NCBI GenBank assembly: GCA_965662175.1
Contig: CBFIGT010000021.1
Location: 1 to 26,602 of the forward strand
From: Arcobacter sp.
GTDB lineage: Bacteria; Campylobacterota; Campylobacteria; Campylobacterales; Arcobacteraceae
DNA: 26,602 bases
Direction: 5' to 3'
In this document: in pieces, positions 1 to 24,262 of the stretch
Layout: each line of letters begins with the position of its first letter
Numbering within the stretch: the first letter of the stretch is position 1
Made by a program: the position numbers and the translations under genes
Notes under the pieces: model-generated
Seen by the model: the letters and a program-made list of their open reading frames with translations, nothing else
What the model was told of the DNA's origin: nothing
Databases searched by the model: none

Positions 1-77
1 TTTTTCTCATTCTTCTCTCCACTTTAACTAATTTTAACATAGTATTTTTCTATGTCCTATTTAGTGTAGCCAGATCA
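1..77 (-). mobile_element. Left end of an IS3-family-like insertion sequence (IRL at 53-77 plus first codons of orfA); element continues beyond the window start
   Basis: Minus strand from 77 reads TGATCTGGCTACACTAAATAGGACA (5'-TG start and internal GGACA, as in IS3-family IRs), then a GGAG SD (20-17) and ATG AGA AAA at 10-2. It begins exactly where the IS1634-like reading frame breaks. Confidence 0.7.
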
Positions 78-342
78 TTGGAATAAAATTTTGAGTTGTT
101 AAATTTGACAATAGTTCTTTTAATAATATCTTTTTATTTGATTCACTAATTGAGTTTGCAAAAAGATTTTGGGATAGTTCATTTATTCTTTCAAGAGCTT
201 TTTCATAAAGTTGTTCAATCTCATCTTCATTAGAACTACAACCAATAGTTTCAACTACTTTATATCCTCTATTTGTTCTATCTAATATTTGAACACTAAT
301 ACTTCCACTAGCATTTTTCTTTTTTCTAACTCTTAAATTCAT
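61..342 (-). pseudogene. IS1634-family transposase, N-terminal fragment, truncated by IS insertion
   Basis: N-terminus RVRKKKNASGSISVQILDRTNRGYKVVETIGCS is typical of IS1634 transposases. Only 93 aa; the last residues (MIWLH*) are read from the inserted IR. Confidence 0.7.
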
Positions 343-467
343 AAAGAAATTTTAACTAATTTACACTTGGGACACACAATTAGCACTTAAATTCTCTCTA
401 CAAAGCCCTTAGATAAGGGATTGTTGTTTTTTAATTGATGATTTTTTGAGTTATCGCGGAAGTCAGG
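78..467 (-). mobile_element. 5' part of an IS1634-family-like insertion sequence
   Basis: Minus-strand terminus CCTGACTTCCGCGATAA at 467 resembles IS1634/IS1549-type ends (recalled, not searched). Dyad CCCTTA-GA-TAAGGG at 406-419. Transposase N-terminus follows. Confidence 0.65.
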
Positions 468-489
468 AAGAGAATAAAGAGAAAATTGA

Positions 490-1332
490 TTAAAATTTTT
501 CTCTAAACTCTTTACATGTAATAAATGTAGATGAAAAGTTTGATATTAAGCTTTCAAGTTTACTTTCACAATTTTTAAGTCCATGATAATGTATGAAGTG
601 TTCTAAAGGTTTTAAATCAAGTTTTTCTTGATGTTCATCCAACTCTCTTGGATGTAAGTAGATAAAAGTTGGTGTACCTTCTTTGTTTTTTTTATGCATA
701 AAATATTTAGTAAACCATGCTGGAAAAAATCTAAGATAAAATCCTCCACTAAAACCTACTCTTTTATTTGCAAATTCTATAACAGGAACTGGAATTTCTA
801 GTATATCAATTGTTTTATTTCTAATTATAGGAAAGTTAGCCTTAGTTTGAAAGCCAGGAATTCCATAAAGATAAGTATAGGCAGGATAAACAGAAGAAGA
901 GTATGTTATTTCTTGTTCTTTTAATACATCATAATACCATTCTAAATTTTCTTTTTTAACTGACCATGATGGCGCTCTATATCCAACAACTTTTTCACCT
1001 ATTATATCTTCTAAATTAGAGCATGATATTTTTAAATCTTCTCTAAATTCATCTTCACTCATTGTATAAACAAGTTTATGTAAATGACTATGTGATGCAA
1101 TTTCATGTCCCGCATTATATAATTTTTTAACAATATGAGGTTTGTTTTTAGCAATATCTCCTACAATAAAACAAGTAGATTTAACATTATATTTTGCACA
1201 TAAATCAATTGTTTTGTCTATAGTATAGTCTAAATTTGTTTTCGTATTATGAAATTTACTTAAATCAACATCATAATTTGAATGGTACCACTCTTCTATA
1301 TCAAAAGTTAAAAAATTATTAATATTTTTCAT
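490..1332 (-). CDS. Polysaccharide deacetylase, CE4/NodB fold, DUF3473-type (XrtA/PEP-CTERM-locus-like)
   Basis: Motifs TFDIEEW, HEIASHSHLH, GYRAPSW, SGGFYLR, YLHPRE. GGAG SD upstream. Confidence 0.9.
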   Translation of the reverse strand: MKNINNFLTFDIEEWYHSNYDVDLSKFHNTKTNLDYTIDKTIDLCAKYNVKSTCFIVGDIAKNKPHIVKKLYNAGHEIASHSHLHKLVYTMSEDEFREDLKISCSNLEDIIGEKVVGYRAPSWSVKKENLEWYYDVLKEQEITYSSSVYPAYTYLYGIPGFQTKANFPIIRNKTIDILEIPVPVIEFANKRVGFSGGFYLRFFPAWFTKYFMHKKNKEGTPTFIYLHPRELDEHQEKLDLKPLEHFIHYHGLKNCESKLESLISNFSSTFITCKEFREKF

Positions 1333-1344
1333 TATATCTCCATA

Positions 1345-2295
1345 TTATATTACATCAAAATCTGATAAATTAGATTCCCATTTTTGTAAATCAAAAATCT
1401 TATCATCGAATACATTTTCTTCTAAAGCTAAGCCTATAAAGTTAATATTTTTAGGTTCATATTTAAGTGGTACCTTAATCAAATTTATAGGTGAATAGGA
1501 AATATTTCCTATATACATAATAGTGTCTATCTCTTTTTTATGTTTTTTATAAATATAGTTTACACTTGACTCAATATTTTTTTTGCTAAGAGGTTGTACA
1601 TCAATCAAGTAAGCAACTTTAGTATTCTCAAAATCTTCAATTTTATAAAAAAATTTAAAATCATTAATTTCAATTATTTTATGGCTAGAGGAGTATCTTT
1701 GTTTAATAAAAGATAAGTCGAAAACTTTTTTTATATCTTTTTTTTCATATACATCTTTTGTAAAATAAGAGAGGAACTTACTACAAATAAAAGATGAATA
1801 TAATTTTGTAAGAGGAGACAAAAAACTTAGTTCTTTTTTTAATTTTCCTATATTAACAGGTAAAACAAAAAAGTTTAATCTACCAATATCTTTATACTCT
1901 AGCACTTTTTTAAATATGGGATAACTATTATCATTAGGATAAGCAAATAAAAATGATATATTTTCAGCTTTACAAATTTCATTAAGTGTTATTGACATCA
2001 TAACAAAATGTTTTAAAGATCTAAACTCTTTTTTTATCATAACATCAACAAAAAGTCCCATCTCATAAATCTTTTCAAAATAGTTATATTTATAGGGAAT
2101 TACAGTTTTAATACCTACAATAATATCTTCTTCTTTTATAAAGCAGTGATATGAATATCCCTTATAACTATTTAAAAATTGTCTATCAAACTCTTTTACA
2201 TCTTTATGTTTATTAAAAACATCAAAAAAAAGTTGACATATTTGTTCTTTTTCAACTACAGTTAACTCTGTAGTTTTTTTTAAAATATAATCTAT
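1345..2295 (-). CDS. GNAT-family acyltransferase (316 aa if started at ATA 2295; the ORF track gives only 1345-2061)
   Basis: Frame is stop-free from 2061 to 2295 (checked codon by codon). AAGGA SD lies 6 nt before ATA. GNAT-like motif A (VDVMIKKEFRS) and FAYPN segment. Confidence 0.7.
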   Translation of the reverse strand: MDYILKKTTELTVVEKEQICQLFFDVFNKHKDVKEFDRQFLNSYKGYSYHCFIKEEDIIVGIKTVIPYKYNYFEKIYEMGLFVDVMIKKEFRSLKHFVMMSITLNEICKAENISFLFAYPNDNSYPIFKKVLEYKDIGRLNFFVLPVNIGKLKKELSFLSPLTKLYSSFICSKFLSYFTKDVYEKKDIKKVFDLSFIKQRYSSSHKIIEINDFKFFYKIEDFENTKVAYLIDVQPLSKKNIESSVNYIYKKHKKEIDTIMYIGNISYSPINLIKVPLKYEPKNINFIGLALEENVFDDKIFDLQKWESNLSDFDVI

Positions 2296-2306
2296 GTTAA
2301 ATCCTT

Positions 2307-3041
2307 TTAAAAAATAGCTCCACCTGAAATAGGTATATTTGCACCTGTAATATAATTTGAGTCTTTTGATAAAAGAAGTTTAATTATTGGCGTGACATCA
2401 TTAACATTTGCATTTCTTTTCTTAGGATTATTATAAGCTGATAATTCAACTAATTTCTCATTAATATCTGAAAGAAATTTAGTTTCAATCATTGATGGAG
2501 ATACTGCATTGATATTTATATTCTTATCTGCATATTCACTAGCTAAAGATTTTACTAATCCTAATAATGCATATTTAACTGTAGTATAGTGTACTAAGTT
2601 TTTTGGAGGTACATTTAGTGTTACGCTTGATAAAACAACAACTATATTTCCCTCTTTTTTTTCTTTAATTAATTTTGGTATAAATTTATTTAAAATATTT
2701 ACAAAAGCTTTTAGACTAATATTTATATCTTTTTCAAAATCACTCCAAGATATATCTTTAAATCTAAGAGTTGAAAATTTTGAAGCAGCAAAATTAACTA
2801 TTTTATTAGGAGTTCCATATTTTGATTCAATTTCATTTAACAAATTATTAACATCTACATCATTTGATAGGTCTGCTTTAATAGTAATAATTTTCTTATT
2901 TAAACTTTTAGCTAGCTCTAAAATATTTTTATCACAGCTATTATAATGTGCAATAATTAAACTATCATTCTCAATATTTTTAATTAAATCTAAGCCTAAA
3001 TCAGAAGAAGCACCTATTAATAAAATAATATCATTATTCAT
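2307..3041 (-). CDS. Short-chain dehydrogenase/reductase (FabG-like ketoreductase)
   Basis: LIGASSDLG nucleotide-binding loop, VLSS, YTTVK (YxxxK), NAVSPSMIET, ITGANIPISGG. Start moved to ATG 3041, which overlaps the MaoC stop and follows GGAG. Confidence 0.88.
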   Translation of the reverse strand: MNNDIILLIGASSDLGLDLIKNIENDSLIIAHYNSCDKNILELAKSLNKKIITIKADLSNDVDVNNLLNEIESKYGTPNKIVNFAASKFSTLRFKDISWSDFEKDINISLKAFVNILNKFIPKLIKEKKEGNIVVVLSSVTLNVPPKNLVHYTTVKYALLGLVKSLASEYADKNININAVSPSMIETKFLSDINEKLVELSAYNNPKKRNANVNDVTPIIKLLLSKDSNYITGANIPISGGAIF

Positions 3042-3453
3042 CCATAACTCCAACTTTAATTTTTGCCTTAGATACTTTTTGATTTTTTTGATTTTCAATA
3101 CTTGCTTTTATTTCTATTTGCTTATATGCACTATTAATATATGACACTTTTCCACTTATTTTTAAATTGTCATCTACAAAAACAGGTTTAGAAAATTGTA
3201 TATCAATACCTTGTAAAATACAATATTTTCCAGGTAAATAAACACCTACTAAAGTAGAGTAAAATGATGCAGTTAGCATTCCATATACTACAGTAGAATC
3301 AAAACCTTTTTCTTTTGCATAAGAAACATCAATATGTAAAGGGTTAGTATCATTTGATATCTTTAAAAAATTTTCCATCATATTTGATGTAATTACAACT
3401 TCAAAAGATTCACTTAATCCTTCAGCTATATCTTCAAATTTGTATTGATTCAT
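3034..3453 (-). CDS. MaoC/PaaZ-type hot-dog dehydratase
   Basis: Hydratase-2-like motif SNDTNPLHID...VVYGML and FSKPVFVDD. Confidence 0.88.
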   Translation of the reverse strand: MNQYKFEDIAEGLSESFEVVITSNMMENFLKISNDTNPLHIDVSYAKEKGFDSTVVYGMLTASFYSTLVGVYLPGKYCILQGIDIQFSKPVFVDDNLKISGKVSYINSAYKQIEIKASIENQKNQKVSKAKIKVGVMDE

Positions 3454-3701
3454 TACTGTTTTTCTATTTTTTCTAATATTAAACTATTCATTTCACCTAC
3501 ATCTTTTAGGTTTAATAATTCAGGTAAAGAGAACTTTATTTTAAACTCTTTTTCTATAGCACTAACTAGATTTATATGATTTAAAGAATCCCAATCTTCA
3601 ATTGTATCAGAGTTTGTATTATCATTTATTATTAAATCTTCATCATCAAAAATATCTCTAAATATTTCCTGTACATTATTAAATATCATCTCTTTTGTCA
3701 T
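3453..3701 (-). CDS. Acyl carrier protein
   Basis: Acidic 82-aa protein with WDSL phosphopantetheine site; 1-nt overlaps with both neighbours. Confidence 0.92.
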   Translation of the reverse strand: MTKEMIFNNVQEIFRDIFDDEDLIINDNTNSDTIEDWDSLNHINLVSAIEKEFKIKFSLPELLNLKDVGEMNSLILEKIEKQ

Positions 3702-5476
3702 TAGTTAACCTTTATAAATTTATTTTTATTTTCATAATTAGATATGTCTAATTTCCATATACTATTATCTTCATCTTTCTTTACTAGTTCAAAACCAAAT
3801 TTTGAGTAGAGATCTTCAACCATTCCATTCTTATTACTTTTATAGTAATATCCTCTAATTTCATTTATGTTTCTTTCTTTACATCTTTTAACTAGTTCAT
3901 CCAACATTGCAAATTCCATATCTCTTTTTAAAACTCTACAGCTCATAAGCCATAAATCAATATGTGCAATATTATCAATTATTGATGCAATTGAAATTGC
4001 TATTAAACCATTGTCTCCAAACTTATCTGTTAATTTTCCATATATTTTAATAAAACTATCATTTAATAAAACCTCTTCCATTTCAGCAGATGTATACCTT
4101 TTTGTAGTTAGATTAAATTGATTTGTTTTATTTGTAAGTTGAGTAATTCTTTCTAAATAAATTGTGTTAAAATCATTAATCTCTGCACTCATGTTTAATG
4201 AAATTAGAAAATCATCATAAGATTTAAAGTTTGATTCTTCTTCAACTCTTTTTTTGTTATCTTCATAATATTTGTTTCTATTTATGTCATCATTTGATAG
4301 TGAAATAATTTCAAAATAAGCTTCTTTATCAATGTAGTCAATAAAATCAATAACATTATTACCTACATTTGGAACACTTACTGATTTAACTTGAGAAGAA
4401 ACAATTTCTCTTTCAACGGGATTATCATCAATAAATACTAAACTATCTATACCTATATTTATCTCTTTTGCAATTTCAACAATATTATGATGTTTTGGTT
4501 CCCAATTAGCTTTAAAGGAAGTAAAATCATCAAATTTCAATATTGTATCTGGGTGTTCAAAACCCTCTTTTGCATTTTTGAAATCATTTTTTGAACAAAC
4601 ACTAAGAATGATTCCTCTATCTTTTAGCTCTTTTACATATTTCTGAAATTGAGTGTAGGTTTCTGAGATAGCAGTTTCGCTACCAATTGATATACCAGAT
4701 AAGCCATCATCACCTATTACTCCACCCCAGCATGTATTATCTAAATCTAAAACCAAGCATTTTTTTGTTTTACCAAAAACTGCACCTATTATTTTAGATA
4801 TATTTTGGGCTAAGTGAGGAATTGCATTGTAACTTATTGCATATTTAGATGTATGCCATAAGGACTTATCAAACCAATTTATTAAACCCATACTTGCTGA
4901 TAAATAGTTAATATCATTTATATATAAATTTTTGATTTCATTTGCTGCTTTTGCAAATTCTAAATTTATTTTATTAATAAAATTTGTTTTTCCATGAATA
5001 TCATAAAAATCTAAATTACCTAAACTTCTGTTAAGTGGCAAATCAAAATTATTTTGAATAATACTACACTCATATTTTGCTAAAGAGTCCCATATACTTT
5101 TAAATTTATTATATAAAGAGGCTAGTTTATTTTCAATGATATTTGCATCATCATTAAAATTAGGATATTCCAAAATATTTAAGTTTGTTGTGTGAATATA
5201 TATTATATCGGGTGCAAACTTTTTCAAGATTTCATTATCAAAAACTGAGTCTTCATAATATTTATTAAATTCAGACTCATAAAACTCTGTTTCAATTCCA
5301 AGATTTAAAAGAAATAGTTCTAAAATATTCTTTATTTCAGATGTAGTTGAACCACCTAAAATTGCAACTTTTTTTTTCATAAAATTACTTTTTGTATTTA
5401 AAAGTTCTTTCTTTAAACTTTTCTTCTTTCTTAATATAAACTCTACATCTAAGGGGTAACTTAAAGCTTTTAACAT
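3701..5476 (-). CDS. fkbH: FkbH-like HAD-IIIC glyceryl transferase/phosphatase
   Basis: HAD motif I LDLDNTCWGG, CSKN, NWEPK, FIDDNPVER, KTNQFNLTT, DKFGDNG, and the WLMSCRV Cys motif. Confidence 0.9.
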   Translation of the reverse strand: MLKALSYPLDVEFILRKKKSLKKELLNTKSNFMKKKVAILGGSTTSEIKNILELFLLNLGIETEFYESEFNKYYEDSVFDNEILKKFAPDIIYIHTTNLNILEYPNFNDDANIIENKLASLYNKFKSIWDSLAKYECSIIQNNFDLPLNRSLGNLDFYDIHGKTNFINKINLEFAKAANEIKNLYINDINYLSASMGLINWFDKSLWHTSKYAISYNAIPHLAQNISKIIGAVFGKTKKCLVLDLDNTCWGGVIGDDGLSGISIGSETAISETYTQFQKYVKELKDRGIILSVCSKNDFKNAKEGFEHPDTILKFDDFTSFKANWEPKHHNIVEIAKEINIGIDSLVFIDDNPVEREIVSSQVKSVSVPNVGNNVIDFIDYIDKEAYFEIISLSNDDINRNKYYEDNKKRVEEESNFKSYDDFLISLNMSAEINDFNTIYLERITQLTNKTNQFNLTTKRYTSAEMEEVLLNDSFIKIYGKLTDKFGDNGLIAISIASIIDNIAHIDLWLMSCRVLKRDMEFAMLDELVKRCKERNINEIRGYYYKSNKNGMVEDLYSKFGFELVKKDEDNSIWKLDISNYENKNKFIKVN

Positions 5477-5501
5477 GATCTAACATCCTTTCAAAAAAAT
5501 G

Positions 5502-5510
5502 ATTATAGCA
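5502..5510 (-). promoter_or_regulatory. Extended -10 sigma70 promoter (TGCTATAAT) upstream of fkbH
   Basis: Exact TGnTATAAT match about 25 nt before the ATG; AAGGA SD at 5490-5486. Confidence 0.6.
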
Positions 5511-5526
5511 AATTTATTATAATAAC

Positions 5527-6462
5527 TTATTTAGTTTTTAACTCTTTATAGTTTATTTTTTGTAATACAATTGTGGCTGTTCCCCATAAAGAAGATGGTA
5601 CCACTTGTAATATATGCATAACTATAGCAGTTGCGAGTGCTTCTTCTTTTGAAATACCATAATAACCTAATGCTAATACCATAGCAGCATGATAAGTACC
5701 TATTCCACCAGGATTTAGTGGTATTATAAATCCAATTGATGTTATTGTAAAGATAATAAAAAGTTGTGTAAATGTAAAGTGAAAATCCATGCCATAATAA
5801 AAAAGTAACCAAAGACTTATAAGATTTACAAAATAAATTATAAAGGTTAAAATTATAATATAAATTATTGATTTTAAATTTAATCTTGATGAAAAAAGAT
5901 AGTGTAATTTAAAAAGTGTATTTTTTATTTTTTTATTAGGAAAGTTCCAAAAGAGCTTATAAAAATATTTATTTTTACTTTTTAAAAGATAAAGAAAAGT
6001 TAAAAATCCTATAAATGACACAATAGCTATGTTTTGCCAAAAAAGTGTTTTTGACTCTAAAAATGTAACTATTAAAAACATTGATATTAAAACTAAAAAA
6101 TCAAAAAATCTTTCGATGATTAGATAAACTAAACTTTTTTTTAGTTTTAAGTTTGACCTTATTTTAAGATAAAAAATTCTAGAGAACTCACCTAATCTTG
6201 CAGGTAAAATAGTGTTAAATAAAGCTGTAACCATACAAGCATTGAATGAGTCCATCCAATTATTATAGTATTTTGAAATATACTGCCATCTAAATGCTAA
6301 TACAGCCACTTGGAAAAAAATAGTAAAAACAATAAACAGAAGTAAATAAATTGAAACTTTTTGAATGGTTTGTAACAATATAACAAAATCTACATTATTA
6401 AATATAAACCAAACAATAAAGATTAATATTGATAACTTAAGAAGGAAAATTAACTCTTTCAT
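5527..6462 (-). CDS. Lysylphosphatidylglycerol-synthase TM / flippase-like membrane protein (UPF0104)
   Basis: Multiple TM segments; AFRWQ, NTILPARLGEFSR, ERFFD, PLNPGGIGTYH motifs. Confidence 0.85.
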   Translation of the reverse strand: MKELIFLLKLSILIFIVWFIFNNVDFVILLQTIQKVSIYLLLFIVFTIFFQVAVLAFRWQYISKYYNNWMDSFNACMVTALFNTILPARLGEFSRIFYLKIRSNLKLKKSLVYLIIERFFDFLVLISMFLIVTFLESKTLFWQNIAIVSFIGFLTFLYLLKSKNKYFYKLFWNFPNKKIKNTLFKLHYLFSSRLNLKSIIYIIILTFIIYFVNLISLWLLFYYGMDFHFTFTQLFIIFTITSIGFIIPLNPGGIGTYHAAMVLALGYYGISKEEALATAIVMHILQVVPSSLWGTATIVLQKINYKELKTK

Positions 6463-6465
6463 TAA

Positions 6466-7446
6466 TTAATTTTCTGCTTTTATTGATAGCTGGTTATTTT
6501 CGTTATTATTAAATATGAAATTAACTTTTTCTCTATCTTCATCACTTAATACAATATTAACAAGTGCTTTTGTTCCTGATTGTATTAAATTATCTTTATT
6601 TGGTACTTCAAACTCAACAATAATTCTTCCAAACTCAGGGTCCATTACTGGAATAACCTTTTTAACAGGGACTTCCATAATAACAGCAGGTGTAGTTAAA
6701 AATGTTATAGTAACAACTTTATTTTTCTTAACAAAAGGAAGTAATCCAGGCGCTAATCCGGCTTTAACTTTTATTCTTGAAATGTCAACTATACTTCCAA
6801 TATTTTCACCTTCACTTAGGATTTTCCCCTCATATACATCTAATTTTGAAATATAACCTGAAATAATAGCTTTTACCAAAGTATTTTCTAGCCTATCTTG
6901 TAATTTGAAAAGCTCAACTCTTTTTTCAGAAATATTTTGTTCTTTCTCATAATAAACTGTTCTTGATGAATTTTCTGATTCATTTTTTCTATATAAAGCA
7001 TTTGCATATTCATTTTTTGCTTCATTAAATTTTTCTTCTGAAGTATAACCTTGAGCGTAAAGTTTTGCTACTTTTTCTAAATTCATTCTTGCTAAATGAA
7101 TGATAGTAGGATTAGTACCTCCTCCACCATAATTTTTGTATCTATATAAATTTTTTTCTGAAACTTCAATCTCTTTTTCTAGTTGTGCAATCTGTTTTTG
7201 AATAACTTTTTCATCAATAGAGAAAATTACATCATTTTTATTTACAAAACTACCAACATTGTTTTTTATCTCACTAACTTTTCCATTAATTGAAGTTATT
7301 GTTTGAGATTTATATGGGTATGATGTACCTTCAAGCTCTATACTTAACTTTTTATCTTTTTTTTGAATTTGTCTTTCTTCAGGTTTTTGTGCACAACCTA
7401 AAAATACTAAACTTAGTATCAATGTAGAAAAAATAATTTTAGTCAT
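6466..7446 (-). CDS. HlyD/RND-type periplasmic adaptor (membrane fusion) lipoprotein
   Basis: Lipobox VFLG-C, two half-lipoyl motifs (INGKVSEI..VGSFV; ISGYISKLDVYEG) flanking a coiled coil, then PVMDP..GRIIVEFEVPN. Confidence 0.8.
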   Translation of the reverse strand: MTKIIFSTLILSLVFLGCAQKPEERQIQKKDKKLSIELEGTSYPYKSQTITSINGKVSEIKNNVGSFVNKNDVIFSIDEKVIQKQIAQLEKEIEVSEKNLYRYKNYGGGGTNPTIIHLARMNLEKVAKLYAQGYTSEEKFNEAKNEYANALYRKNESENSSRTVYYEKEQNISEKRVELFKLQDRLENTLVKAIISGYISKLDVYEGKILSEGENIGSIVDISRIKVKAGLAPGLLPFVKKNKVVTITFLTTPAVIMEVPVKKVIPVMDPEFGRIIVEFEVPNKDNLIQSGTKALVNIVLSDEDREKVNFIFNNNENNQLSIKAEN

Positions 7447-7464: not shown

Positions 7465-8181
7465 TTATGGTAGTTTTTGTAATTTTATATCTGTAACCAA
7501 AGGTACATAACCTCGATTAATTGCTAGATTTTTAATCTTATCAATTGTGTGATTATCTTCAATATACCAATAATCGACACTATAACATTTTATAGATTCT
7601 TTTATATTAAATCTATGCGCCTCTTCATGTAAAAAATAGCTGTTTGTTTCAAAATTATGAGTTGAAATTGTTGACTCTAATAAAACAGAATCAACATTTA
7701 ACTCATTAATTATTTCAAAACCTCTATTTATCATAATTTTTAAATCCGGATATAGGATTTTAATTTTATTAATTAACTTAATTATATTATTTTTAGATGT
7801 TAATTTATGGTGTAAAATTGAATCTATTGTATCCAACATTAATCCATTATAGCCTGATTTTATAATTGATGGGATAATTTGTGTTAAAACTAAATTTTCC
7901 CAGAAAAAATCAAATCTAATAAAGTAACTATCCCAGATTATACTTTTATTTAGAAGTTTGTTTTTTGCTTCTAAATCTTTAAAGTAAGCTCTGTAATGGT
8001 TAACTTCCCCCAGACTTAAATAAGCATATGTAGAGGCTTTGAACTCTCTTACATCTTTGTAATTATCAGGGTCTAGGATTATAGTTTCGTATTTATTTAA
8101 CTTTTTTGTACAAGCTGCACTACCGTAATAAATAAAAAACGATTCTATTTTTAAGCTATTTAATATATTCATCTTTCTCAA
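7465..8181 (-). CDS. Endo-alpha-1,4-(N-acetyl)galactosaminidase-like hydrolase (PelA N-terminal GH166/GH114-like)
   Basis: IYYG, AYLSLGEV, GYNGLMLDTIDS, NRGFE, VLLES motifs. Start is TTG 8181 or ATG 8172. Confidence 0.75.
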   Translation of the reverse strand: MRKMNILNSLKIESFFIYYGSAACTKKLNKYETIILDPDNYKDVREFKASTYAYLSLGEVNHYRAYFKDLEAKNKLLNKSIIWDSYFIRFDFFWENLVLTQIIPSIIKSGYNGLMLDTIDSILHHKLTSKNNIIKLINKIKILYPDLKIMINRGFEIINELNVDSVLLESTISTHNFETNSYFLHEEAHRFNIKESIKCYSVDYWYIEDNHTIDKIKNLAINRGYVPLVTDIKLQKLP

Positions 8182-8292
8182 TTAATTTATTTTATAAACA
8201 AAACACTAAAGTATATTTAAAAGTAACTTAATATATTATAATTTAAATAATATAAATTCTCTCTCTTTTGTTTTCTTTTATCAAGTTTTAGT

Positions 8293-8298
8293 TATAAT
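8293..8298 (+). promoter_or_regulatory. Putative -10 box (TATAAT) for tkt
   Basis: TATAAT followed by CGCAA, the same context as the purE promoter; AGGA SD before ATG 8340. Confidence 0.5.
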
Positions 8299-8339
8299 CG
8301 CAAAATTATTAAAACTAACTACAATAAAATAGGAAAGAT

Positions 8340-10250
8340 ATGTCAAATAACTTACTTCAAAAACAAGCAGATACAATTAGATTTTTAGCTTCTGATATGG
8401 TTCAAAAAGCGAAATCAGGACATCCTGGGGCTCCTATGGGTCTTGCAGATATTGCAACGGTATTAAGTAAACACTTAAATGTAAATCCAAATAATTCACA
8501 ATGGTTAAATAGAGATAGATTAGTATTTTCAGGTGGTCATGCAACAGGATTAGTTTATTCATTATTACACTTATGGGGATTTGATGTAACAATTGATGAT
8601 ATTAAAAACTTTAGACAAACTCATTCTAAAACTCCAGGTCACCCTGAATATGGTCATACTCATGGAGTTGAGATTACAACTGGACCTTTAGGTCAAGGTA
8701 TTGCAAATGCAGTTGGTTTTGCAATGGCTGCAAAATATGCAAAAAATATTTTAAGTTCTGATGTAATTAATCATAAAGTTTACTGTTTATGTGGTGATGG
8801 GGATTTACAAGAAGGGCTTTCTTATGAAGCAACTGCAACAGCTGGTCACTTAGGACTTGATAATTTAGTTATTATTTATGATTCAAATGAAATTACAATT
8901 GAGGGTGATACTTCTATTGCTTGGAGTGAAGATGTTAAGAAAAGATTTGAAGCTATTGATTTTGAAGTTTTAGAGATTGATGGACATGATTTTACTCAAA
9001 TTGATGAAGCTTTAGTTAAAGCAAAAGATGCTTCTAAACCTGTTATGATTATTGCACATACAGCTATTGGAAAAGGTGCTGCTACTATGGAGGGAAGTCA
9101 TCATACACATGGTGCTCCTTTAGGTGAAGAAGAGATTGCAGCTTCAAAAGTAAAAGCTGGATTTAATCCTGAAGAGAAGTTTGTAGTTCCTGCTGAAGTA
9201 AAAGCTGCCTTTGATAAATCACAAACAGGTGCAGAAATTGAAAAAGCATGGAATGATTCATTATCAAATGAAGCAAAAACAGAAATTGAAAAACTACAAA
9301 ATCCTGATTTTGATTCTATTGTTTATCCTGAGTTTGAAGCTGATACTTCAGTTGCAACAAGAGATTCAAATCATAAAATCTTAAATGCTATCTCTGAAGC
9401 TATTCCTGGATTTATGGGTGGAAGTGCCGATTTAGCTCCATCTAATAAAACAGAATTAAAAGGTGCTGGTGATTTCCCAAATGGTAAAAATATTCACTTT
9501 GGTATCAAAGAGCATGCTATGGCATCTATTTGTAATGCAATGAATTTATATGGATTATTTAGAGTATTCTCAGCAACTTTCTTTGTATTTTCTGATTATT
9601 TAAAACCAGCAGCTAGAATTGCAGCTCTTGCTTCAATCCCACAACATTTTGTATGGACTCATGATAGTATTGGTGTTGGAGAAGATGGTCCAACTCACCA
9701 ACCAATTGAGCATTTAACACAATTTAGAGCATTACCAAACTTTTATACATTTAGACCAGCAGATGCAAGCGAAAATGTAAAATGTTGGCAAACTGCACTT
9801 AAAATAAATGCTCCAACTGCATTTGTATGCTCAAGACAAGGATTAAAAGTCTTAAAAGATGATAGAGCATTTGGAGATGTGGAAAATGGTGCATACTTAG
9901 TTAAAAAAAGAGATAATGCAAGTGTTACTATTATGGCTAGTGGTAGTGAGCTTATGTTAGCACTACAAACAGCTTGTTCTTTAGAGGAAGAGGGAGTTAT
10001 TGCAAATGTTGTTTCAGTTCCTTGTTATGACTTATTTATAGAGCAAGAAGCATCTTATATTGATCATGTAATTGATAAAAATACAAAAGTATTTGCTGTT
10101 GAAGCTGCCCGTGGATTAGAGTATTATAAATTTGCTGATGTAGTTATTGGTATGGATACATTTGGTGCATCAGGTCCTGCAAATGATTTATTTGATGAGT
10201 TTGGATTTACAGTTCCAAAATTAAAAGCTAATATTTTACGAAACTTATAA
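8340..10250 (+). CDS. tkt: Transketolase
   Basis: SGHPGAPMG, TTGPLGQG, GDGDLQEG TPP motif, THDSIGVGEDGPTHQP. Confidence 0.98.
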   Translation: MSNNLLQKQADTIRFLASDMVQKAKSGHPGAPMGLADIATVLSKHLNVNPNNSQWLNRDRLVFSGGHATGLVYSLLHLWGFDVTIDDIKNFRQTHSKTPGHPEYGHTHGVEITTGPLGQGIANAVGFAMAAKYAKNILSSDVINHKVYCLCGDGDLQEGLSYEATATAGHLGLDNLVIIYDSNEITIEGDTSIAWSEDVKKRFEAIDFEVLEIDGHDFTQIDEALVKAKDASKPVMIIAHTAIGKGAATMEGSHHTHGAPLGEEEIAASKVKAGFNPEEKFVVPAEVKAAFDKSQTGAEIEKAWNDSLSNEAKTEIEKLQNPDFDSIVYPEFEADTSVATRDSNHKILNAISEAIPGFMGGSADLAPSNKTELKGAGDFPNGKNIHFGIKEHAMASICNAMNLYGLFRVFSATFFVFSDYLKPAARIAALASIPQHFVWTHDSIGVGEDGPTHQPIEHLTQFRALPNFYTFRPADASENVKCWQTALKINAPTAFVCSRQGLKVLKDDRAFGDVENGAYLVKKRDNASVTIMASGSELMLALQTACSLEEEGVIANVVSVPCYDLFIEQEASYIDHVIDKNTKVFAVEAARGLEYYKFADVVIGMDTFGASGPANDLFDEFGFTVPKLKANILRNL

Positions 10251-23836: not shown

Positions 23837-24262
23837 TTACTCTTTAGATAATTTTCTATTTTGTTTTTGTTTGCTTAAAATTTTGTGTTTGTTCTCTTCA
23901 TAATATTTCTTTCTATACTCTCTTAACTCTTCTTTTTTCTTTTCTCTATACTCTTTATCATATTGAAGACGTTTCTCTTTGTTCTCTTCATAATACTCTT
24001 TTTTTCTATCTCTATATTCATTGATTTTTTTTACAATTTTTTCTTTTCTACTATCAACATGAGATTTTTGTTTTTTAATAATCTCTTTGATTTTTAAATC
24101 AAAATTCTCAACATTTAAATCATCTTCATAATCATAAATTACTTTAGATGCACCACTTTGTTTCTCTTTTTCTTGCTTCTTCTTTAAGTAGTATTCTCTT
24201 TTTTTCTTTTTATGTGCTGAAAAATTCTCTTCTCTAAGTTTTTTTAATTGTTCTAAATCCAT
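23837..24262 (-). CDS. Hypothetical highly charged helical protein with 15-aa repeats
   Basis: K/E/R/Y-rich; KKEYYEENKEKRLQY / DKEYREKKKEELREY / RKKYYEENKHKILSK. Tightly packed between flgG and the next gene. Confidence 0.65.
   Translation of the reverse strand: MDLEQLKKLREENFSAHKKKKREYYLKKKQEKEKQSGASKVIYDYEDDLNVENFDLKIKEIIKKQKSHVDSRKEKIVKKINEYRDRKKEYYEENKEKRLQYDKEYREKKKEELREYRKKYYEENKHKILSKQKQNRKLSKE

Follow-up and report, generated by a model that had tools for sequence, protein, structure and literature searches.

A predicted acyl-exchange route linking an FkbH-type donor cassette to a Pel-like locus in an Arcobacter species

A six-gene cassette in an Arcobacter genome, taken together with its flanking genes and an operon on a second contig, points to a route in which undecaprenyl-P-HexNAc would lose its acetyl group, receive lactyl on the freed nitrogen, be flipped and end up on a Pel-like polymer, a reading to which we give a probability of roughly 0.45. 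The new element is a sequence overlap with contig C91 that places the cassette in a lipid-linked, Pel-like context. The DNA analysed (the window, 26,602 nucleotides) carries six minus-strand genes, identified through its list of open reading frames and profile searches, whose junctions overlap or lie 11-12 bases apart, in keeping with the tight, co-oriented layout described in an earlier note. The features are:

61..466, minus: end of an IS-like element; its 93-aa transposase-like start is encoded here, and the insertion breaks DUF2304 in the window's allele
467..493, plus: final 8 codons and stop codon of a GacJ/Rv3632-like DUF2304 gene (C91 match), converging on the CE4 stop
490..1332, minus: CE4 de-N-acetylase of DUF3473 type, 280 aa (PF11959, DUF3473; PF01522, Polysacc_deac_1)
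1345..2295, minus: tandem-GNAT N-acyltransferase, 316 aa, ATA at the start position (Acetyltransf_9 28.8 bits, cut-off 25)
2307..3041, minus: SDR reductase, 244 aa (adh_short_C2 133 bits)
3034..3453, minus: MaoC/PhaJ-type dehydratase, 139 aa (PF01575 63 bits)
3453..3701, minus: dedicated acyl carrier protein (ACP), 82 aa (PP-binding 24 bits, cut-off 20.8)
3701..5476, minus: FkbH-type loader, predicted glyceryl-ACP synthase, 591 aa (TIGR01686 and Pfam FkbH_N)
5502..5510, minus: extended -10-like motif TGCTATAAT, a sequence motif match only, directly upstream of the fkbH Shine-Dalgarno
5527..6462, minus: LPG_synthase_TM membrane protein, predicted flippase for lipid-linked sugar (PF03706 150 bits; TIGR00374, 'flippase-like', above cut-off)
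6466..7446, minus: HlyD-type periplasmic adaptor of a Pel-like locus (PF16576/PF13437)
7465..8181, minus: GH114 glycoside hydrolase-like protein (PF03537 27.4 bits, cut-off 27)

The six genes are real and their catalytic motifs are intact. FkbH scores 279.5 bits against TIGR01686 (cut-off 146.65), is 54-55% identical to the FkbH proteins of loci L143, L144, L147 and L187, and carries DLDNT at 244 and MSCRV at 511, which we take to fill the roles of the HAD DxDxT motif and the C-terminal cysteine in this family. The adjoining ACP has its DSL motif at 38, and the genome encodes one AcpS. The closest solved structure to MaoC is an (R)-specific enoyl-CoA hydratase (1iq6, E 7e-14); its D35/H40 and the YxxxK of the SDR, whose start codon (ATG, 3041) overlaps the stop codon of maoC, are each invariant in nine of nine aligned sequences, and the best 120 of 707 SDR homologues lie at 60-86%. 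The GNAT, with 128 homologues, is modelled at pLDDT 94 with an NMT/Eis-like fold (Z 18.6), and its hydropathy profile revealed no signal or TM stretch. CE4 retains the motifs TFDIEE, HSHLH, RAPSW and YLHP, is 60% identical to the GNAT-adjacent CE4s of L041 and L044, and matches ArnD weakly (E 0.002). As previously remarked, no PKS/NRPS-sized frame occurs among the listed open reading frames of the window, and C91 likewise has none for a PKS/NRPS extension module.

The extended -10 box that had been assigned to the cassette is present as the motif TGCTATAAT, expected from base composition at about 0.6% per 50 bases; a generic promoter scan of the window gave no excess over shuffled sequences (65 vs 62.3), and hence we treat the fkbH promoter as a motif match only. 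The GNAT frame lacks a canonical start, having instead ATA at 2295 behind the Shine-Dalgarno AAAGGA. Only when read from there is the GNAT domain detected: the frame from the first ATG (2061) is 78 residues shorter and matches no family. Translation from this ATA is putative.

The idea of a stand-alone operon did not survive inspection of the flanks. The LPG_synthase_TM gene, which has the same orientation, ends 50 bases upstream of the six-gene set, and no terminator-like site was called in the gap. Orthologues of the HlyD protein occur in 2 of 40 relatives, both adjoining CE4/LPG genes, and the GH114 protein presumably resembles the PelA hydrolase domain. On the other side, the CE4 end connects through an alternative path of the assembly to the Pel-like operon on C91, where the complete DUF2304 gene resides: window positions 467-591 match C91 9468-9592 at 123 of 125 bases, the last 77 exactly, and a 77-base overlap is the modal one in this assembly (34 of 76 exact end-overlaps). 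Differing by two bases, C91 represents another strain's allele. The IS-like element, which we take to be of the IS1634 family, contains a frame (61-342) that is 60% and 42% identical to terminal frames on contigs C153 and C57 and has no Pfam match.

C91 codes for PelF (NF038011, 165 bits against a cut-off of 100), a PelG-like protein, a predicted GT-C transferase of 733 aa, a PpgS/GacI-like GT2 of 228 aa, whose best match is PpgS over its full length (206 bits vs a cut-off of 370), and DUF2304 (38.5 vs a cut-off of 25.5). The top 20 structural matches of the 733-aa model, which is of moderate quality (pLDDT 75, built from 10 sequences), are all GT-C-fold enzymes or their relatives, among them AglB (Z 17.6, rmsd 4.5, 331 aligned), ArnT (Z 16.8, rmsd 6.5, 424 aligned), PglB and PMT. 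Pfam gave no direct match for the PelG-like protein, which is 39% identical to a protein of genome G052 that itself scores 27.5 with PF16933, under the cut-off of 29; contig C10 carries another locus, in which PelG is clear. Family profiles named none of PelB, C, D, E or PelA on C91, which is cut at its start. In three genomes of another family (G052, G087, G418), PelF-PelG-x-GT-C-HD-GYP faces HlyD-CE4-LPG-FemAB-like GNAT-DUF2304-GT2, with the FemAB-like GNAT in place of the FkbH cassette. LPG_synthase_TM orthologues adjoin CE4, GNAT and GT2 in these three genomes and in G021 and G040, and a TIGR03019-like GNAT is present in the orthologous loci of G052 and G021.

What the data show directly is the identity of the genes, their motifs and neighbourhoods, the link between contigs in the assembly and the predicted folds; we infer every substrate assignment for this organism, the choice of lactyl rather than glyceryl and a Pel-like acceptor. 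In this scheme FkbH likely charges the ACP with glycerate, whereupon MaoC and SDR would convert glyceryl-ACP to pyruvoyl-ACP and then to lactyl-ACP. The GT2 and DUF2304 proteins of C91 are predicted to make the lipid-linked sugar, CE4 to deacetylate the resulting undecaprenyl-P-HexNAc, and GNAT to place lactyl on the freed amine; the LPG_synthase_TM protein would flip the product, and the 733-aa GT-C-fold protein would transfer it to a Pel-like surface polymer. FkbH loading, dehydratase-ketoreductase (DH-KR) lactyl formation and polyprenyl-P-HexNAc synthesis by GT2 and DUF2304 are assigned by analogy with established families. The earlier note had placed an N-acyl swap on a surface polysaccharide; the swap logic stands, with the substrate shifted to what is likely a lipid-linked monosaccharide and not the polymer itself. 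It had also called the lactyl-ACP chemistry proposed, whereas PMC4765723 reports DH-KR proteins as characterised for turning glyceryl-ACP into lactyl-ACP.

Comparative genomics indicates that the six-gene set is a joining of two mobile modules, FkbH-ACP-MaoC-SDR and GNAT-CE4. The four donor genes recur elsewhere and across phyla, usually ahead of an MBOAT gene: among the best-scoring family-f26 loci fetched, FkbH, MaoC and SDR occur in 7 of 7, with MBOAT next in all 6 scanned, and L156 and L187 keep the four genes in the same order. Two FkbH-NRPS loci that were fetched had no MaoC or SDR match. The complete series of six domains, in unchanged order, turned up once more, in a spirochaete (L028), where the MaoC-SDR frame has an internal stop; L148 and L149 have a broken MaoC as well. 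The L028 GNAT belongs to a clade other than that of the window's, and hence the coupling of donor block and GNAT-CE4 likely arose twice. L029 has FkbH-ACP-GNAT-CE4 without MaoC/SDR and a GNAT near-identical to that of L028; together with the stop in the latter, this favours glyceryl in those loci.

The deacetylate-and-re-acylate logic gains comparative support from the second module. CE4 directly follows GNAT in 67 of 95 loci (9 at a contig edge), or 32 of the 47 clusters to which they reduce at 80% identity, and in two loci the gene in this position is PIG-L, a deacetylase unrelated to CE4. Upstream of GNAT, the 47 clusters show FabH+SDR(+ACP) in 15, AMP-ligase+ACP+SDR in 3, FkbH+ACP in 1 (L028/L029), ACP with an FkbH fragment in 1 (L024) and SDR only in view in 3; 15 of the 38 clusters with room upstream have no donor cassette. 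Most GNAT-CE4 relatives lie in repeat-unit-type capsule/O-antigen loci with no DUF2304 or ArnE/F-type gene in view; their substrate may not be that of the window's locus. The nearest CE4 relatives (L041/L088, L044) stand behind a polyprenyl-type GT2 and an ArnE/F-like protein, and in a quick tree the window's CE4 groups with such GT2/flippase-linked versions (support 96 and 99).

In its logic the route would resemble NodB/NodA, ArnC/D/T and also the lactyl starter of FR901464 while being identical to none. The FR901464/lankacidin starter likewise brings together FkbH, ACP, dehydratase and reductase, a likeness in gene set; here these are four discrete genes with no PKS/NRPS, the product likely going to a sugar amine. 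ArnD-type de-N-acylation acts on a lipid-linked sugar. In Nod factor synthesis, according to PMC5080398, a deacetylase frees an amine to which a transferase adds an ACP-borne acyl group, the same logic of deacetylase, acyltransferase and dedicated ACP. In contrast, the window has a 316-aa tandem GNAT, a predicted C3 acyl in place of a fatty acid and a likely lipid-linked monosaccharide substrate; CE4 scores 39.9 with the NodB model (cut-off 240), the GNAT has no NodA family among its Pfam matches up to E 1 and no NCBIfam match, and no NodC chitooligomer synthase was found, the sole linked GT2 being the PpgS-like one. GacI/GacJ and PpgS/Rv3632 make polyprenyl-P-HexNAc for a GT-C enzyme, according to 10.1101/180810. 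The GacI/GacJ/GacK/GacL, PpgS/Rv3632 and ArnC/D/E/F/T routes have counterparts in the present locus in a putative polyprenyl-phosphate GT2 with DUF2304, a candidate flippase and a predicted GT-C-fold transferase; what they hand over is HexNAc or an amino sugar with a free amine, whereas re-acylation by a dedicated ACP cassette and a Pel-like acceptor are predicted here. The Pel system has counterparts here in PelF (above cut-off), a putative PelG-like exporter and a GH114 protein, to which C91 adds GT-C and the lipid-linked sugar module, with no PelB, C, D or E identified on it. A DUF3473-type CE4 also adjoins a GNAT in exopolysaccharide loci of the XrtA/PEP-CTERM type (TIGR03006, TIGR03019), a pair whose chemistry is, to our knowledge, uncharacterised. 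We rejected membership in that pair: CE4 reaches 216 bits against the TIGR03006 cut-off of 276, and the GNAT matches neither TIGR03019 nor, by profile, the GNAT of G052.

It is unlikely that the same lipid-linked route moves a glyceryl or acyl-CoA-derived group, with MaoC/SDR as cassette passengers or serving another acyl chain. The L028/L029 pair and the enoyl-CoA hydratase match of MaoC fit such a version, and a 3-hydroxyacyl-CoA dehydrogenase following the GNAT of L039, the nearest of known context, makes acyl-CoA donors possible, as does the similar pairing in L100; yet the window's MaoC and SDR are whole, overlap adjoining genes and retain their catalytic residues, the four-gene block persists across phyla, and the cassette has no FabH or thiolase. 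Quite unlikely, too, is an N-lactyl swap in the cytoplasm on UDP-HexNAc or the nascent repeat or polymer, the modified sugar being built in by PelF or another transferase. Both CE4 and GNAT are predicted to be soluble, Pel-type polymers are partly deacetylated, and the capsule/O-antigen setting of most relatives would suit it; the tree placement of CE4 argues for a lipid-linked substrate instead, as do the orthologous loci, in which CE4 and a GNAT stay together with GT2, DUF2304, LPG_synthase_TM and a GT-C-like gene.

The N-acyl sugar might be lipid-linked as proposed and the GT-C acceptor be lipid A/LPS or an exported protein. This would agree with the matches to ArnT (lipid A) and to AglB, PglB and PMT (proteins), with HlyD and outer-membrane efflux genes suggestive of a protein export system, and with G040, which carries the module as GT2-GNAT-CE4-PMT_2-LPG with no Pel genes in its 15 kb contig; we hold it decidedly improbable, given that the pelF-pelG operon encloses the GT-C gene both in the window's genome and in all 3 f17 genomes fetched. 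Equally improbable is a locus decaying in this strain, with the GNAT start lost, DUF2304 cut by the insertion and no acyl swap. A canonical start in 82 of 83 GNAT homologue loci, the IS-like insertion itself and the failure to find FkbH in any of 7 same-genus genomes speak for decay. Conversely, all six frames are open with the Shine-Dalgarno kept, the insertion removes only 8 DUF2304 codons and an intact allele exists on C91, and P0002 (a one-residue GNAT variant) and P0013 (the nearest relative, 61% identity) are also called from internal ATGs, fitting an old, tolerated non-canonical start.

N-hydroxyacyl amino sugars occur in bacterial surface glycans, and few genes are assigned to re-acylation of the C2 amine. 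The lactylation route favoured here would add a full predicted pathway from donor to GT-C; analogues are known for every one of its steps, so that the novelty would lie in how they are combined and not in the kind of system. More doubtful is a general, so far undescribed acyl swap on undecaprenyl-phosphate amino sugars, in which CE4 and tandem GNAT would replace N-acetyl by the group of a plug-in cassette (3-hydroxybutyryl, glyceryl, lactyl or aminoacyl); the present locus would then be the first to equip a Pel-like biofilm polymer with an N-lactyl-hexosamine side chain, as a hydroxy-acid equivalent of what the FemAB-type version does in related genomes. The GNAT-CE4 pair with plug-in donors offers a testable rule, from cassette to acyl group, across several phyla, and the FemAB-like GNAT versus the FkbH cassette with tandem GNAT constitutes a natural swap in the same Pel-like setting. 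If true, the lactylation route would extend polyketide lactyl-starter chemistry to glycans, and Pel-like polymers could bear branched, acylated side sugars, with consequences for biofilm charge, hydrolase sensitivity and phage binding.

The six genes that the earlier note had described as co-oriented and overlapping or tightly spaced are all present, in a 2.6-Mb assembly of 27.8% GC of which the window is an entire contig:

490-5476, minus strand: FkbH, ACP, MaoC, SDR, GNAT and CE4 genes, each with a family match above the cut-off
5510-5502, minus strand: motif TGCTATAAT, upstream of fkbH
Upstream of fkbH, ending 50 bases before it, minus strand: GH114, HlyD and LPG_synthase_TM genes

Neighboring cassette genes overlap or are separated by 11-12 bases, and catalytic motifs are present in all six products. 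The operon does not stand alone as had been claimed, since the GH114, HlyD and flippase-like LPG_synthase_TM (LPG) genes continue on its strand almost to fkbH. At 8181-8340 this whole block stands next to transketolase, at a site which in 5/5 same-genus genomes (L162-L166) holds an ORF of 2000-2700 aa, a VWA/RTX/LapA-type adhesin in the one scanned. With different genes beside transketolase in these genomes and in the window, the site looks like a variable surface-structure slot. Elsewhere (23837-24262), a 141-aa Lys/Glu/Tyr-rich repetitive ORF lies between flgG and a gene for a 410-aa membrane-anchored protein; neither the ORF nor the latter neighbor has a Pfam match.

HlyD orthologues point to two other genomes, G052 and G021, in which genes for a CE4, LPG, a FemAB-like GNAT, DUF2304 and a GT2 are clustered; in G052 this cluster adjoins PelF and PelG. 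Searching the window's genome with their proteins uncovers a second contig, C91, coding for:

PelF, above the cut-off
a PelG-like protein
a 451-aa protein
a 733-aa membrane protein (model pLDDT 75), with GT-C-fold proteins in its top 20 structural matches
an HD-GYP protein
a GT2, best match PpgS, below the cut-off
DUF2304

The predicted structure of the 733-aa protein matches AglB (Z 17.6) and ArnT (Z 16.8). According to one paper (10.1101/180810), GacI/GacJ and PpgS/Rv3632 are GT2 and DUF2304 pairs making polyprenyl-P-HexNAc for GT-C enzymes. Over its last 125 bases C91 differs from window 467-591 at two positions, the final 77 bases being identical, and 77 bases is the modal exact end-overlap in the assembly (34/76). 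The window retains the final 8 codons of the DUF2304 of C91, whose stop overlaps that of the CE4, and then enters another element:

1-466: end of an IS-like element that carries a transposase-like start, interrupting DUF2304 eight codons ahead of its stop

From this overlap and the DUF2304 tail retained before the IS-like sequence, we read two alleles, one with the cassette running into C91 and one with an insertion at that point. Contigs C153 and C57 have related transposase-like starts at their ends. We reject contamination as the origin of C91, given the graph overlap and a tetranucleotide correlation of 0.98 (rank 17 of 53). The same genome has a second Pel-like locus (L181, contig C10, 233-12605), with genes for a PelF-like GT4, a clear PelG, a TPR protein, a Spherulin4 hydrolase and two 607-aa proteins lacking a Pfam match.

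We favor, at a probability of about 0.45, an N-lactyl swap on undecaprenyl-P-HexNAc, which would be flipped and its sugar transferred to a Pel-like polymer. The GT2 and DUF2304 would make undecaprenyl-P-HexNAc, from which the CE4 would strip the acetyl group; the GNAT would N-lactylate the amine with lactyl-ACP supplied by FkbH, ACP, MaoC and SDR; and LPG_synthase_TM would flip the lipid-linked sugar for a GT-C enzyme to move it onto the polymer. The gene identities and links are observed, the folds are predicted, and we infer each substrate assignment.

Related loci show several variants of this arrangement. G052, G087 and G418 share this gene set minus the FkbH cassette, and their GNAT is of the FemAB-like kind, which gives no profile match to the window's GNAT. 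The GT-C-like gene is whole in G087 and G418; in G052 (L159, 8920-13510) there are two tandem copies, each split in two ORFs. G040 has the order GT2-GNAT-CE4-PMT_2-LPG, and LPG is the only member of the set in G410. In a quick tree, the window's CE4 groups at 60% identity with the GNAT-adjacent CE4s of loci L044 and L088, both located after a polyprenyl-type GT2 and an ArnE/F-like gene; this group is sister to the CE4s of G052 and G021. In G036, of the same family as the window's genome, a MaoC-SDR/FkbH/ACP cassette is separately coupled to a GNAT and LPG; this locus (L154, 6749-15367) comprises a MaoC-SDR fusion, FkbH, ACP, a hexapeptide transferase, GNAT, LPG_synthase_TM and a 656-aa membrane protein.

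The GNAT gene of the earlier note holds up in its frame and domain, but its canonical start is absent. The domain is detected only when the frame is opened at an ATA at 2295 (region 2293-2306), which follows an intact Shine-Dalgarno and aligns with the homologues' Met; a canonical start occupies the matching position in 82/83 homologue loci with alignments reaching the N-terminus. One could accordingly imagine a decaying locus, which we hold improbable: P0002, differing by one residue, and P0013, the nearest relative at 61% identity, are likewise called from internal ATGs in their protein records, hinting that a non-canonical start is tolerated and possibly conserved in the lineage. At least half of the stretch's words occur in sequencing runs from 4 studies, with smaller shares in RNA runs, uninformative on expression or the ATA codon. 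The model of the GNAT (128 homologues) is a tandem GNAT (pLDDT 94), predicted to be NMT/Eis-like (Z 18.6), and a sequence search of solved structures gives only weak AAC(2') matches (E 0.006). Transfer of a glyceryl or CoA-borne acyl group in place of lactyl is unlikely, with glyceryl a live alternative; the CoA-binding GxG loop is absent in 68/72 GNATs, including one locus with a CoA-type neighbor, and is no guide to an ACP versus a CoA donor. Somewhat less likely again is action of the CE4 and GNAT on a UDP-sugar or the polymer, and lipid A or a protein as acceptor is as improbable as decay.

Preference for the lactyl swap draws on the pairing of GNAT and deacetylase. Two scans gave 98 GNAT loci, of which 95 with a called GNAT ORF were kept and 3 dropped; these include kin, are not independent and favor two subgroups. 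CE4 is the next gene in 67/95 (9 loci end at a contig edge) and a PIG-L deacetylase in 2/95; of the 47 clusters formed at 80% identity, 32 have CE4 next.

Genes upstream of GNAT, by cluster
FabH+SDR(+ACP): 15/47
AMP-ligase+ACP+SDR: 3/47
FkbH+ACP: 1/47
ACP with FkbH fragment: 1/47
SDR only: 3/47
no such cassette: 15/47
no room: 9/47

A 3-hydroxyacyl-CoA dehydrogenase lies downstream in 2 clusters, and most of the loci belong to capsule or O-antigen gene clusters. Among 400 same-phylum genomes there are no full-length GNAT relatives and 10 matches to the N-terminal domain. The search for the six-gene set mostly came up empty; L028 (Spirochaetia MS502-68) has all six in the window's order, with an in-frame stop separating MaoC and SDR; its close twin L029 lacks MaoC/SDR. 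Their GNATs fall in a different clade from the window's (FastTree), so the cassette-GNAT coupling likely arose more than once. MaoC-GNAT fusions occur within NeuB/NeuC-type nonulosonic acid clusters (L150, 7540-8757; L152, 7863-9062), L150 additionally with a PIG-L deacetylase, a parallel deacetylate-and-re-acylate set.

FkbH matches of any kind occur in 8/61 genomes, the window's own counted, and MaoC matches in 21 of 301. The 7 top-scoring genomes of the MaoC search, all of family f26, have FkbH, MaoC and SDR together (7/7; L143-L149), with MaoC broken in two and a methyltransferase inserted in two; a methylated ester, O-methyl-lactyl or methyl-glyceryl, would be in keeping with the latter. 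MBOAT is the next large gene downstream in 6/6 scanned; in these loci FkbH-ACP-MaoC-SDR is followed by MBOAT as well as an unknown protein of 360-430 aa. Bordetella O antigen, with its O-methyl-lactyl cap, may be a precedent. The middle wbm genes are predicted to modify the terminal sugar (PMC3849452). All four donor genes in order occur in one Subdoligranulum record and one spirochaete-phylum genome. Close SDR orthologues in three other phyla number 0/351, 1/201 and 0/201 genomes, with none in viral contigs and 1 in a plasmid record. On Sinorhizobium meliloti pSymB, a VOC protein, MBOAT, ACP and FkbH-like gene lie together (L182, 3801-9689); FkbH matched in 40 Sinorhizobium records.

Rejected roles are core fatty-acid synthesis, with FkbH not found in 7/7 same-genus genomes, and a PKS/NRPS starter, with no partner PKS/NRPS. 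Dehydratase-ketoreductase proteins that convert glyceryl-S-ACP to lactyl-S-ACP are characterized, according to a review (PMC4765723), and by analogy the window's MaoC/SDR may do likewise. The cassette shares with NodB/NodA a principle, including a dedicated ACP (PMC5080398), and works in like manner to the Gac/PpgS/Arn lipid-carrier routes and the FR901464 lactyl starter; on tested features it falls outside the Nod, PKS-loading and XrtA-pair families. Open-access literature, without supplements, yielded no description of this gene combination; nor, with most subscription journals outside its scope, anything relevant on FkbH/ACP/MaoC or deacetylase/GNAT/ACP in polysaccharide loci, nor a text with Pel terms for the window's phylum. 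The cassette set is a real, patchily distributed system, and the recurrence of its donor block across genomes in different contexts argues that the block is a mobile unit supplying different transferases.
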